From a virus: 25,786 bases of DNA. The notes under the pieces were generated by a model, which saw only the letters and a program-made list of their open reading frames with translations, was not told where the DNA came from and did not search any database. Shown piece by piece: positions 17,544 to 21,667 of this stretch (position 1 is its first letter; each line of letters begins with the position of its first letter). The DNA lies in UHGV virus genome UHGV-1799016; one strand, written 5' to 3'. A program made the position numbers and the translations under genes.

Positions 17544-17837
17544 ATGACAGAACCCAAGAAACGGAAGAAATATGGTGGTCGCACCAAGGGCACTCCCAAC
17601 AAGGTGACGGCCGATATGAGGGCAACCATCAAGTCGTTGCTCGATGAATATAGCGGCAGCGGCAAGATGACAGACGACTTTGGCCGACTCAAACCCAAAG
17701 AGCGTTTGGCCGTGGCCGAAAAGCTCATGCAATATGCCATTCCCAAACTGCAGGCCACCACGCTCGAGGTGAGCGAGGGTGCCACCAAAACCATTGAAGA
17801 CACGCTGCTCGAACTCTCTCGTTTGTCTGATGTGTGA
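17544..17837 (+). CDS. Hypothetical small protein with strongly basic N-terminus (KKRKKYGGRTKGTPNK); possible nucleic-acid-binding protein
   Basis: ATG-initiated 97-aa ORF directly after the giant gene; Lys/Arg-rich N-terminal 20 residues, then an acidic helical-looking remainder. Confidence 0.45.
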   Translation: MTEPKKRKKYGGRTKGTPNKVTADMRATIKSLLDEYSGSGKMTDDFGRLKPKERLAVAEKLMQYAIPKLQATTLEVSEGATKTIEDTLLELSRLSDV

Positions 17838-17877
17838 CTATTTAAGGGTGTCCACTAGCCGCAGAGTGCTATCTTTG
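17838..17877 (+). promoter_or_regulatory. Bipartite promoter-like motif, copy C (CTATTTAAGGG, then TATCTTTG 32 nt downstream)
   Basis: CTATTTA at 17838-17844 and TATCTTTG at 17870-17877, a perfect match to the Bacteroidetes -7 consensus TAnnTTTG; same spacing as copies A and B. Starts immediately after the stop codon at 17835-17837. Confidence 0.4.
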
Positions 17878-17926
17878 TGCCGAAGATGTGTGGGTGCACA
17901 CGTTTGAACGTTAATGAATAGGTTTG

Positions 17927-17968
17927 CTTCGCTCCGTCGACGGATGAGTCGGTGGGGCGAAGTTTTTT
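17927..17968 (+). terminator. Candidate intrinsic terminator (9-bp stem, one G-U pair, 18-nt loop, T6 tract)
   Basis: CTTCGCTCC (17927-17935) pairs with GGGGCGAAG (17954-17962), followed by TTTTTT (17963-17968). The loop contains the perfect palindrome CCGTCGACGG. Confidence 0.45.
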
Positions 17969-17996
17969 GTTGTCTCCCCGAGGAGCGTGCTTGGTG

Positions 17997-18051
17997 GTGT
18001 CTATTTATGGGTGTTGCGCGGTGTGTAAGTGCTATATTCGCGCAAAACAAC
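17997..18051 (+). promoter_or_regulatory. Bipartite promoter-like motif, copy B (GTGTCTATTTATGGG, then TATATTCGCGCAAAACAA 32 nt downstream)
   Basis: GTGTCTATTTA at 17997-18007 and TATATTCGCGCAA at 18033-18045; identical boxes and spacing to copy A; about 35 nt upstream of the ATG at 18081. Confidence 0.4.
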
Positions 18052-18080
18052 ACAGATACGCAACTCCAAACAAAATAGAG

Positions 18081-18821
18081 ATGGGAGACAATAAAACAGA
18101 AACGAAAAGCAAGCGCGAATCTTTTTTGTCGCGCATGAAGGAGAAGCACCCCGATGTGGACTTCGACGATGAGGACGCTCGCTATGGTCAGTTTACCGAC
18201 GACCTCGATGCGCTCGAAGCGGAAAACGGCGCGATGCGTGACCGCGAGGGCAAGCTCACCACTATGTTCAATTCTCACCCTCAGGCAGCAGCTATGATGG
18301 TAGACTGGATGGACGGTGGCGACCCAGTGGTAACCTTGGTGAAGCGTTTCGGACCCGAGCTTTCAGAAGCCTTGCAAGACCCCGAGAAGCAAGAACAGCT
18401 AGCAGCCGCGCAAAAGGATTATTTAGAGCGTGTGGCAAAGGAGAAAGAGCTAGAAGCGCAATATCAAGAAAATCTTTCTGCATCCCTCACAGAACTTGAC
18501 AAAGTACAGGAAGAACTTGGACTTACAGATGAAAAAGCTGACGAAGCTCTTAAGTTGATTATCAAGATAGCCAACGATGCTATTATGGGCATTTTCACTC
18601 GTGAGAGTTTAGAAATGGTGTTGAAGGCTATAAACTACGACACAGACGTGGCAGCGGCTGATTACGAAGGGGAGGTGCGTGGAAAGAATACCAAAATCAC
18701 GGAAAAACTCAGACAGAAAGGAGCAGGAGACGGAGTTCCTGTACTGGGTGGCAAGAGTGGTGGTGCGCTTAAGACGCAGCCCGTAGACGATATCTTTAGC
18801 GAAGCAGCAATGGCTCGATAG
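18081..18821 (+). CDS. Putative head scaffolding-like protein (acidic, helical/coiled-coil); start chosen at ATG 18081
   Basis: The ORF-track entry 17952-18821 begins at a GTG inside the promoter/terminator cluster; the first ATG (18081, MGDNKTETKSK) lies just downstream of promoter-like copy B. Acidic protein with long helical heptad-like stretches, sitting immediately upstream of a capsid-sized gene. Confidence 0.4.
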   Translation: MGDNKTETKSKRESFLSRMKEKHPDVDFDDEDARYGQFTDDLDALEAENGAMRDREGKLTTMFNSHPQAAAMMVDWMDGGDPVVTLVKRFGPELSEALQDPEKQEQLAAAQKDYLERVAKEKELEAQYQENLSASLTELDKVQEELGLTDEKADEALKLIIKIANDAIMGIFTRESLEMVLKAINYDTDVAAADYEGEVRGKNTKITEKLRQKGAGDGVPVLGGKSGGALKTQPVDDIFSEAAMAR

Positions 18822-18854: not shown

Positions 18855-20375
18855 ATGGCAGACAACATTAGCGTCAATGTAACAGAAAAGACATTGACAA
18901 CTCAACCTGGTTCAGCAGGCTTGAATACTCAAGTCCCTGGACAAGCGGCAACAGTCAGTGGTGCAGCGGAAGCCACTGGCGGAATTGGCGCAGGTCATTT
19001 TGTCGAACGTGACATTGACCAGAACCTATTTAATTTCCGTTGTGCCACACACTTGTATGATTTGTCTATTAAGGCTAAGAACGTGCCAGTTACTTCGCCA
19101 GAGGTAGAACATTATATGGTTGATGACCAGCGAGCATTCGTCACTGTAAAAACAGAACTAGCAGAAAGTGCTGCGTTCCAAACGACAATCCCCCTAGAAG
19201 CTAAAGATGCAAACTTTGCACGTCCATACTCCACGCTCCTAGTGTCAGGTGTTGCTGGTTACGCTCCTGATGGTAAAACCCAAACCCCTGGGCAGCCTTT
19301 GATGCTTCTTGTCACTGGGATTTCAGACGAAACAGGCAATCCTATTGTTCGAGCTATGAATGGTAAAAAGGCTAATCCTAGTGATGAGTTTGGGAATATT
19401 CCTACTATTCCTGCTGGTACAAAGATTTACCTTTTGGGCAATGCGCTTTATGAAACTCAGAAGGAAGTAGAACCCGACCTTTACTTGCCACAGCCAAGTG
19501 TTGTTTATTTGCAAAAGCGCGCTGTCAACAATGTTATCTCAGACTACTTTGAGTCTCAGAAAAAGCGCACTCCCTACTCAAAGGCACAAGTAGCAGAGCA
19601 AGCTATTACAAATTTCAAACGAAAAGGCAATCGTACGTATTGGGCGGGGCGTGCTGGTAAAATCAAAGTGGACACTAAGAAAGTTGGTATGCAGTATCTG
19701 TATACAACAGAGGGAATTCGTTGGCAGTTTAAGCGTGAATTGCGCCACGTAGGCAAGTGGGTTATCGAGGAACTTATTGCTCTTGCAAAAATGTTCTATA
19801 CTGGTAATGATAAGCCTTCTTCTTGTACGGCACTATTGGGCAAGAACCTATTGGAAAGTTTGCAGTGCATTGATTACTCCAAGCATCCAGAGGTGAAAAT
19901 CGATACCAAAGAAAATAAAATAGGTTGGTCGGTTGTGTCAGTGAAGACAGTGTTTGGTGATATTGATTTGCTTTATGAGCCAGCTTTGGATGAACTTGGT
20001 TGGGCAAATAGCGGTGCGTTGATGAGCTTAGACCACTTGGTGCGCTATGTACGTTCTAGCGAAAAGACCTTCAATGATGATATTGAGGGAGAAGAAGCGA
20101 AACGTAGTGGCGTTATCGTGTGGGATGCTGTAGCATTGAAGGGTAACTGTCATATTTGGATTGACGGTGAAGGAACTACAGCACCGATGACTGGTATTCA
20201 GAATATCGGAATTTGGAAAGAAAGCACAGCCCCAACAGGAAATGATTTGGTTGTGGGACGTATCTACTATCTTCAACAAGCTGTGACTAGCATTAGTGCT
20301 AATTCTGCTGAAGGTCAAATGTGGCAATGGGATGGTTCTGCTTGGAAAGAAGTGAAGGGCGACTTCCAAGGCTAG
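18855..20375 (+). CDS. Putative major capsid protein (506 aa)
   Basis: Assigned from position (directly after the scaffold-like gene, followed by a strong terminator hairpin), size and mixed alpha/beta character. No motif-level confirmation is possible by eye. Confidence 0.4.
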   Translation: MADNISVNVTEKTLTTQPGSAGLNTQVPGQAATVSGAAEATGGIGAGHFVERDIDQNLFNFRCATHLYDLSIKAKNVPVTSPEVEHYMVDDQRAFVTVKTELAESAAFQTTIPLEAKDANFARPYSTLLVSGVAGYAPDGKTQTPGQPLMLLVTGISDETGNPIVRAMNGKKANPSDEFGNIPTIPAGTKIYLLGNALYETQKEVEPDLYLPQPSVVYLQKRAVNNVISDYFESQKKRTPYSKAQVAEQAITNFKRKGNRTYWAGRAGKIKVDTKKVGMQYLYTTEGIRWQFKRELRHVGKWVIEELIALAKMFYTGNDKPSSCTALLGKNLLESLQCIDYSKHPEVKIDTKENKIGWSVVSVKTVFGDIDLLYEPALDELGWANSGALMSLDHLVRYVRSSEKTFNDDIEGEEAKRSGVIVWDAVALKGNCHIWIDGEGTTAPMTGIQNIGIWKESTAPTGNDLVVGRIYYLQQAVTSISANSAEGQMWQWDGSAWKEVKGDFQG

Positions 20376-20935: not shown

Positions 20936-21667
20936 ATGCAGTTGAGCTTAAAAACGCTTGTCCGTGATGTTCGCGTGGCGATGGATGAAAATGTGACTGA
21001 CGATGGTTTGCAGCTTCTGCGTGAGGTGAACACACTGACGCTCGACGAACTGATTAGCCACCAAGTGGAGACGGCCGCACATTTGGTGCTGTCGGGGGCT
21101 AATGTTGAGCTTCTGGAAGGGGGCAAGTCGTTTTTGGGTTCTTCTGTGTCGCTGTTAGGTCGTGGCATTGGCAGGGTGCAGTTGCCTGCGGACTTCTTGC
21201 GATTTCTCTATTTCCGTATGTCGGATTGGGACTATGGTGTGGCAGACTACATTGTGCCAGAAGACCGGCGATATGCGGTGCAGTTTGGCCGATGGGCAGG
21301 ACTGAGGGGCAGTCCGCACCGTCCTGTTGTGGCGCTGGTGCCTAGCGATGGGGGGATGAGCCTAGAGTTTTTCTCTTCGAGTGGCAGCGTGGCGGAAGCT
21401 CGATATGTGGCGAAACCTAGACTGCAGGGTGCTGGCGACGACTGCGTGATGGATTTCCCCTTGATGCTGAAAGATGCCTTGGTGAACGAAGCGGCTGCGC
21501 TGGCTTGTCAGAAGTTGGGAGCGGTGAACGAGGCGTCTATGCTCGGTGGCACGGCAGCGGCCTTGATGAGAGGGGCTTCGCAGTTGAAGATGTCGCAACC
21601 TCCGTTGGTGCCGTTGGCTGGTGCTGAGCAGATGGAGGGTGCTAACGTGGCCGAAGGAGGGGCTTAG
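20936..21667 (+). CDS. Hypothetical structural-module protein (243 aa), GC-rich
   Basis: ATG at 20936, 12 nt after the upstream stop; first gene of the GC-richer segment. Confidence 0.5.
   Translation: MQLSLKTLVRDVRVAMDENVTDDGLQLLREVNTLTLDELISHQVETAAHLVLSGANVELLEGGKSFLGSSVSLLGRGIGRVQLPADFLRFLYFRMSDWDYGVADYIVPEDRRYAVQFGRWAGLRGSPHRPVVALVPSDGGMSLEFFSSSGSVAEARYVAKPRLQGAGDDCVMDFPLMLKDALVNEAAALACQKLGAVNEASMLGGTAAALMRGASQLKMSQPPLVPLAGAEQMEGANVAEGGA

Follow-up and report, generated by a model that had tools for sequence, protein, structure and literature searches.

A Bacteroidota phage protein family with a conserved GGRxKGTPNK motif as a candidate for the small terminase subunit

Small terminase subunits (TerS) select the DNA that is packaged by a phage and thereby affect transduction and the mobilisation of satellites, and few phage genes are harder to annotate. 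A TerS is typically a ring-shaped homo-oligomer of 8-12 subunits with a helical core and a C-terminal end that binds the large terminase subunit (TerL). Phage satellites commonly carry a TerS of their own. Proteins of the DUF5681 family (PF18932), which is found in phages and bacteria and has no known function, carry an N-terminal motif of the G-R-P-K-G type that is comparable to the one described here. The core genes of the Vibrio PICMI satellites are int, alpA and prim, with no recognised terS among them (PMC10803314).

We analysed one stretch of 25,786 nucleotides from the virus genome UHGV-1799016, to which we refer as the window. It covers a block of late genes of a podophage-like element from Bacteroidota and encodes, among other genes, a protein of 97 aa (Table 1). 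Like the small terminases P22 gp3, Sf6 gp1, SPP1 G1P and T4 gp16, this protein is small and has a basic N-terminal part, a helical middle and a variable C-terminus, and many members of its family, in unrelated phages, directly precede and overlap the TerL gene. It differs from them in its arm, which is a short Gly/Lys/Pro motif, apparently extended in the predicted structure, and not a helix-turn-helix domain. Furthermore, the window gene lies about 20 kb away from TerL and its product shows no detectable sequence or fold similarity to those proteins. In the case of DUF5681 the connection consists of a family member that bears the name and of a weak structural neighbour, whereas the window protein falls below the Pfam model with no Pfam match even at E ≤ 10; the kinship, if there is any, is too distant for that model. 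On balance we consider it somewhat probable that the 97-aa protein is a TerS-type packaging specificity subunit, the DNA-recognition and regulatory partner of TerL.

Table 1. Features of the window and of the small gene, with positions counted from the first base of the window.
Feature	Position	Strand	Basis or remark
UbiA-family (prenyltransferase) gene, probably host	896-1861	-	
Promoter-like box, copy 1	2098-2140	+	
T7 gp14-like gene	2163-2675	+	
499-aa ORF	2638-4137	+	
Giant polyvalent protein gene, 4441 aa	4150-17475	+	Pfam ddrB-ParB, MuF_C, ART-PolyVal, LPD38
Strong stem-loop between giant gene stop and small gene start	17479-17524	+	-29.8 kcal/mol, z = -6.0
Small protein gene, candidate TerS-like subunit	17544-17837	+	ORF, translation, homologues, pN/pS, upstream indel
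Codons 11-22, GGRTKGTPNKVT, N-terminal motif, proposed DNA-contacting arm	17574-17609	+	Family alignments, AlphaFold2
Codons 20-70, three-helix unit, proposed oligomerisation core by analogy with small terminases	17601-17753	+	AlphaFold2, alignments
Codons 71-97, variable linker and short acidic C-terminal helix, proposed TerL-binding end	17754-17834	+	Alignments, AlphaFold2
Promoter-like box, copy 2, CTATTTAAGGGTGT ... TATCTTTG	17838-17878	+	Begins one base past the stop codon of the small gene
Intrinsic terminator, 16-bp stem and T6	17926-17969	+	Stem 17926-17963
Promoter-like box, copy 3	18001-18043	+	
Scaffold-sized gene	18081-18821	+	
506-aa capsid-sized gene	18855-20375	+	
SU10 adaptor-like gene	20936-21667	+	

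The initial annotation had placed a small ORF directly after the giant gene, and we found this ORF exactly as described: it starts with ATG, its translation of 97 aa agrees with the earlier one, and it follows the stop codon of the 4441-aa ORF after a gap of 68 nt. Compared to close relatives the gene shows a pN/pS of 0.13-0.15; it is conserved, under purifying selection and real rather than a chance ORF. A word-indexed search returned 59 homologues of the protein. With an exhaustive profile search (E ≤ 1e-3, clusters at 50% identity) we detected relatives in at least 8,825 cluster representatives, almost all of them 75-140 aa long. In the public data of close relatives the gene is called 19 codons longer (116 aa) and the extension crosses the stem-loop upstream of the small gene. 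In the loop of this hairpin the window and those relatives differ by a 5-nt indel that shifts the reading frame; the extension is hence non-coding and the ATG at 17544 is the true start. We therefore rejected the 116-aa call as a start-codon artefact produced by the indel. The stem of the hairpin is conserved and the indel is confined to the loop. As the hairpin lacks a T-run it is not a canonical intrinsic terminator.

The giant protein is probably an internal virion or ejection protein in the position of T7 gp16. It is modular: the window version carries a ddrB-ParB domain and lacks the WH_1, DUF8437 and SNF2-helicase N-terminal modules of the versions of 5738-5792 aa, which are found in phages that are otherwise near-identical to the window (L002, L005 and L093). 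At the left end the UbiA-family gene sits on the opposite strand just outside the first phage gene, from which the region 1862-2160 separates it. It is probably host DNA, in which case the boundary of the prophage would fall at about 1900-2100. A search of the window for tRNA genes gave no result.

The promoter-like box has the consensus CTATTTAWGGG - about 20 nt - TAT(A/C)TT(C/T)G and we counted three copies in the window, compared to 0.22 expected by chance. They precede the operon of the gp14-like and giant genes, directly follow the small gene and precede the scaffold and capsid operon, respectively; copies 1 and 3 have TATATTCGCGCAA in common. The spacing of the box exceeds that of the standard Bacteroides -33/-7 promoter, and the box may be a phage-specific late promoter. 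The terminator downstream of copy 2 ends either the transcript of the giant and small genes or a short transcript that starts from this copy. Folding of the positions 17880-17975 gave -38.3 kcal/mol (z = -4.5). A further hairpin at 17884-17905 lies between copy 2 and the terminator, and the stretch 17880-17969 in the spacer from the small gene to the scaffold gene could be a small RNA or a leader of about 85 nt. This spacer (17838-18080) differs from the relatives at one base, compared to about 4% of the positions in the small gene just upstream.

In the initial annotation the protein had been read as a histone-like basic tail followed by an acidic and helical remainder. The charge of the N-terminus was borne out, with 8 K/R against 1 D/E in the residues 1-20 (pI 10.7). 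The remainder is indeed helical, with predicted helices in the residues 20-65 and 84-95, but it is only mildly acidic (11 K/R vs 13 D/E and a pI of 5.0 for the residues 21-97). The comparison with histones had to be dropped: the N-terminus turned out to be an invariant motif, and no HU, IHF or histone-like family or fold was matched in Pfam, the PDB or the fold searches. Judged from the alignments, the basic N-terminus is a specific sequence motif and not a compositional histone-like tail.

We compared the family in alignments of 45, 82 and 13 members. The N-terminal motif K-x-GGR-x-KGTPNK-x-T is nearly invariant across the family. In both family alignments G12, R13, G16 and N19 are invariant and G11, T17 and P18 nearly so, and among the closer relatives the same is nearly true for K15, K20 and T22. 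The residues 1-10 ahead of the motif are basic yet variable. A second signature, L-x-P-K-E-R-L ... Y-x-I-P-K-L-Q ('EPKERL...Y.IPKLQ'), spans the third helix; D45, L49, P51, R54 and P67 are the conserved positions of the helical unit and the sequences diverge past P67-K-L-Q. The AlphaFold2 monomer model, for which 45 homologues were used as input, is only moderately confident overall (mean pLDDT 76, pTM 0.39). The residues 1-19 are non-helical in this model, with a pLDDT of 63 and 73 for the first two blocks of 10 residues, and the helices 20-39, 41-48 and 51-65 reach a pLDDT of 86-90. The poorly conserved codons 71-97, which include the C-terminal helix (residues 84-95), show values of 53-70. 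The relatives that adjoin TerL keep the motif and the helical core, and their C-terminal region instead contains short segments that resemble beta-strands, for example 'VIEVSWAG' and 'PIVFVKK'. Known small terminases also end in short beta-strand segments.

The database searches did not attach a name to the family. For the window protein and 45-82 of its relatives no named family was found in Pfam, NCBIfam and PHROGs, and none of the PHROGs that were matched (15261, 11043 and 8771) has a known function. A search of PDB sequences with the family profile returned noise only and three fold searches left the 97-aa protein unplaced. No similarity in sequence or fold to a solved or curated TerS was found across Pfam, NCBIfam, the PDB and the fold searches. 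In a large protein collection none of the homologues is named terminase by any database source. A second large protein search, seeded with the TerL-adjacent relatives, returned entries labelled 'hypothetical' except for two implausible 'minor tail protein' labels. Domain fusions in the longer family members were not informative, the extensions being low-complexity sequence or mis-called starts, and we found nothing on the 97-aa protein in the literature on DUF5681, BKO1-TP3 and Bacteroides satellites. The single annotation link is gp71 of the Bacteroides phage BF1-TP2, deposited as 'DUF5681 domain-containing protein', which matches the family profile with an hhalign probability of 99.6%. The weak structural neighbours from a viral structure library also included a DUF5681 protein (E = 2). 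The Pfam scan of 45 members matched 39 families, and DUF5681 is absent from the 25 of them that were listed. One locus (L011:2423-3029) holds two tandem paralogues of the family, with 85 aa and 108 aa, respectively. The second of these has a weak match to PHROG 1889, 'terminase small subunit' (E = 9e-4), and is the sole link of the family to a known TerS. The family is thus very large and so far unnamed.

To describe the gene context we took 80 loci from IMG/VR and 80 loci from GTDB genomes with 141 family genes in total, called the ORFs and labelled the neighbours by iterative searches that were seeded with Pfam-verified proteins. In 63 loci (class A) the gene stands alone on its strand, divergent from an operon of a gp14-like gene, a gene for a protein of about 400 aa and the giant gene. 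In 23 loci (class B) it is directly upstream of TerL and in 17 loci (class C) it directly follows a Rep gene in small islands. The order of the window, with the small gene between the giant gene and the scaffold gene (class W), was seen in 2 loci in addition to the window and near-identical contigs, and 36 loci were left unclassified. Bacteroidota make up almost all of the taxa (Bacteroidales, Flavobacteriales, Chitinophagales, Saprospiraceae and Cytophagales); one class B subfamily is also present in a Stenotrophomonas assembly.

Class A contains the closest relatives. Only about 70-180 nt separate the gene from the divergent operon, with about 100 nt as the typical distance, and a convergent tyrosine integrase gene usually lies 1-3 genes downstream; 12 of the 15 neighbours that we tested match integrase domains. 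Cultured phages of this class are BKO1-TP3, in which the member is gp58 and adjoins the integrase gp59, and BF1-TP2 (gp71). Several full-length contigs of class A (52-66 kb; L015, L018, L027, L037, L041, L045 and L048) end 12-550 nt past the family gene, and these ends could be genome termini, attachment sites or break points of the assembly. The position after the giant gene occurs only in the phage type of the window (window, L002-L006, L013/L014 and L093-L095). The wider distribution does not support the suggestion of the initial annotation that the protein could chaperone the giant protein, as the next closest relatives sit on the opposite strand ahead of the ejection operon and the distant relatives and the islands have no giant gene at all.

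In class B the neighbour of the family gene is a large terminase. Among the 23 non-redundant downstream proteins Pfam detects Terminase_3 in 14 and Terminase_6N in 12, and 16 of the 23 cluster with one Pfam-confirmed TerL in the iterative search. The protein downstream in L083 matches Terminase_6N, and the pair L083/L086 is TerL by Pfam. The clearest case is a P22-like prophage (L185/L186), for which we used the gene calls of the collection itself and its precomputed Pfam assignments. Here a member of 107 aa overlaps a TerL with Terminase_3 by 20 nt, and the order is lysis genes, small ORFs, the member, Terminase_3, P22_portal, a scaffold-sized gene of 288 aa and the P22 coat gene. The corresponding genes of P22 are arranged in the order 3-2-1-8-5, which we take to be the layout of this prophage, with the family member in the position of gene 3 (TerS). 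Similar overlaps of the member with TerL were observed in L187 (4 nt), where a NinG-type early region precedes the member, and in GenBank MW202710 (11 nt, with a TerL that is annotated as such), where the record opens with the member. The packaging operons of L074 and L080 begin with the member and the genes upstream of it are on the opposite strand, so that there is no other same-strand TerS candidate before TerL. Class B proteins score about 54 bits against the window protein (BLASTP) and are thus its more distant relatives.

Where, then, is TerL in the phage type of the window? Near-identical contigs extend beyond the window with more structural genes, a membrane-like protein of 134 aa, a conserved protein of 895 aa, the portal and a protein of 695 aa. 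The P22-like portal has 652 aa, the gene of the 695-aa protein (L101:14706-16793) follows it directly after a gap of 6 nt, and then the genes change strand. The 695-aa protein is 59% identical to gp51 of BKO1-TP3 (L012:37872-39986), which was deposited as 'tail spike protein'. In tblastn the annotated TerLs that it matches come from Stx phages, cyanophages and an uncultured phage (E values of 1e-8 to 1e-14). Its sequence contains KARQWGGST (Walker A-like), YESTANG, VDIGG..D, IESN and GKHDD, which we take to be terminase motifs. With hhalign no link was obtained between the 695-aa protein and an alignment of Pfam-type TerLs. As far as these matches and motifs go, the 695-aa protein and gp51 are the large terminase and the label 'tail spike protein' is wrong. 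TerL of the window phage type is thus downstream of the small gene, and because it directly follows the portal gene the usual slot for TerS is empty.

The protein of 882-895 aa (BKO1-TP3 gp34 family) had come under suspicion of being TerL, as in L052 it comes directly after a family member and in the window type it lies just ahead of the portal. It was rejected: there is no Walker A motif and no match in Pfam or the PDB, and the real TerL was found adjoining. The gp34 family is conserved, with 880-950 aa, and corresponds to PHROG 32516 (L094:18070-20757, L012:16999-19647 and L052:6315-9173). A different family, that of BKO1-TP3 gp49, adjoins TerL in both phage types and is a second candidate for TerS.

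A role in packaging had been among the suggestions of the initial annotation, and the members that precede or overlap TerL favour it, though for a TerS-type subunit and not for a histone-like protein. We infer DNA binding, oligomerisation and TerL binding, and also that the window copy retains the function of a TerS. The conserved arm K-x-GGR-x-KGTPNK-x-T would contact DNA at or near the site of packaging initiation, the helical unit of the residues 20-65 would assemble the protein into an oligomer and the variable C-terminal segment would recruit TerL, so that phage DNA is selected for packaging by TerL. In the window phage type the gene has been parted from TerL and is the last gene of a late operon with the gp14-like, 499-aa and giant ejection proteins.

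TerS is the single function that best fits all four contexts. It fits class B as the member is translationally coupled to TerL. It fits the classes A and W as the gene is a late gene at the boundary of a morphogenesis module and the slot before TerL is empty, and it fits class C as satellites would carry such a gene to redirect the packaging of a helper. The position directly upstream of TerL is found in 23 of the 141 loci and not for the window gene. As the window copy and the 63 copies of class A lie away from TerL, this defining position is confined to the more distant relatives. At the N-terminus, where a TerS has the DNA-binding domain that recognises the packaging site, there is the conserved basic GGRxKGTPNK on a non-helical arm, and no helix-turn-helix was recognised. 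We put the TerS reading no higher because the window copy is away from TerL, homology to known TerS is lacking, the gp49 family stands beside TerL and the functions are predicted ones.

Among the other explanations the one that survives best is a DNA-binding regulator of transcription for the late or morphogenesis genes, which would act at the promoters of the ejection-protein and structural operons. The divergent arrangement in 63 relatives, with a short gap to the gp14-like and giant operon, is often seen for a regulator and its target, and the box that is repeated at three sites of the window could be the binding site. Late activators are often encoded just upstream of the packaging genes and satellites can carry regulators that activate the helper; the position before the packaging genes and the presence in satellite-like islands fit such activators. 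However, in class B the member and TerL overlap by 4-20 nt, so that a separate TerS has no place between them. The window gene closes an operon under the same box as its supposed targets, and the protein would hence be made simultaneously with them. Pfam and NCBIfam gave no match to a helix-turn-helix or to any other regulator family. We consider this explanation unlikely.

The tyrosine integrase 1-3 genes downstream in most of the relatives with the closest context raises the question of whether the protein is a recombination directionality factor, which, like an excisionase, would bend DNA near the attachment site for excision by the integrase. Excisionases are small basic proteins too, and the small islands are integrative. 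However, the gene is convergent with the integrase and not co-transcribed with it, the window type places it in a late structural operon with no integrase nearby, and in 23 loci the gene is coupled to TerL. The Xis and HTH_17 families were not matched in Pfam scans of the window protein and 45 relatives, and the islands already encode an excisionase-type HTH_17 protein. We hence regard a directionality factor as improbable.

About equally improbable in our view is a DNA-binding protein inside the virion that is packaged with the genome and the giant protein and is either ejected or acts as a partner in assembly. In the window the gene is co-transcribed with those of three likely internal or ejection proteins (T7 gp14-like, 499-aa and giant), and the closest relatives always adjoin the ejection module; the small protein itself shows no homology to an internal-protein family of the T7 gp14-16 type. 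The one experimental record of a DUF5681 protein that we found is its identification from two peptides in the virion proteome of a Salmonella phage (PMC8954984), which could indicate a virion protein. Against this, most of the wider family no longer has the link to the giant gene, including the TerL-adjacent and island loci that have no giant gene, and the orientation relative to the ejection operon varies between phage types. Another indication is that a short motif is strictly conserved and not the overall charge, which therefore favours a specific interaction over bulk condensation of DNA.

The islands of class C are about 5 kb long and were found in Bacteroidota genomes (L007, L010 and L139-L178, GTDB). 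By gene clustering their order is a tyrosine integrase of about 400-440 aa, a variable gene, a helix-turn-helix gene of about 95 aa, a gene of about 160 aa, a Rep or primase gene and the family member, after which one or two small ORFs and then the host genes follow. The helix-turn-helix protein has an excisionase/AlpA-type signature (Pfam HTH_17 in L007). As an excisionase-type gene is thus already present, the family member is unlikely to be the excisionase of the islands. The Rep is Phage_CRI-like with about 312 aa (Pfam in L010) or resembles a replisome organiser or a primase. The island copies score slightly closer to the proteins of the classes A and W than to those of class B.

With the satellites of the SaPI/PICI and PICMI types the 17 island loci share the general layout of int, an AlpA-like gene and a Rep or primase gene, and by this analogy they may be phage satellites. 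The window gene differs in that it belongs to a full-size phage and not to an island. In contrast to PICMI, with its lack of a recognised terS, the Bacteroidota islands carry a family member. One could go further and imagine that the islands of about 5 kb are minimal satellites throughout the phylum, which hijack the packaging of temperate podophages with giant proteins by means of a cognate TerS. The window gene would then be the copy of the helper, and an arms race over the specificity of packaging would lie behind the separation from TerL and the placement at a module boundary. We regard this scenario as conceivable but doubtful.

At present the family gene is labelled 'hypothetical', and TerL itself is mislabelled in the examples that we saw. 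If the TerS reading is true, the motif GGRxKGTPNK flags the missing TerS in thousands of gut and environmental phages of Bacteroidota and in some proteobacterial ones. The same motif would point to islands that are maybe the first satellite-type elements recognised in Bacteroidota. An ordinary functional slot is here filled by a sequence family that has no name in curated resources. The points of interest are the size of this unannotated family, the arm motif that is not a helix-turn-helix, the separation from TerL in Bacteroides phages with giant proteins and the candidate satellites. For the window itself the outcome is modest, as the small gene is an ordinary part of the late gene set rather than a histone-like oddity.
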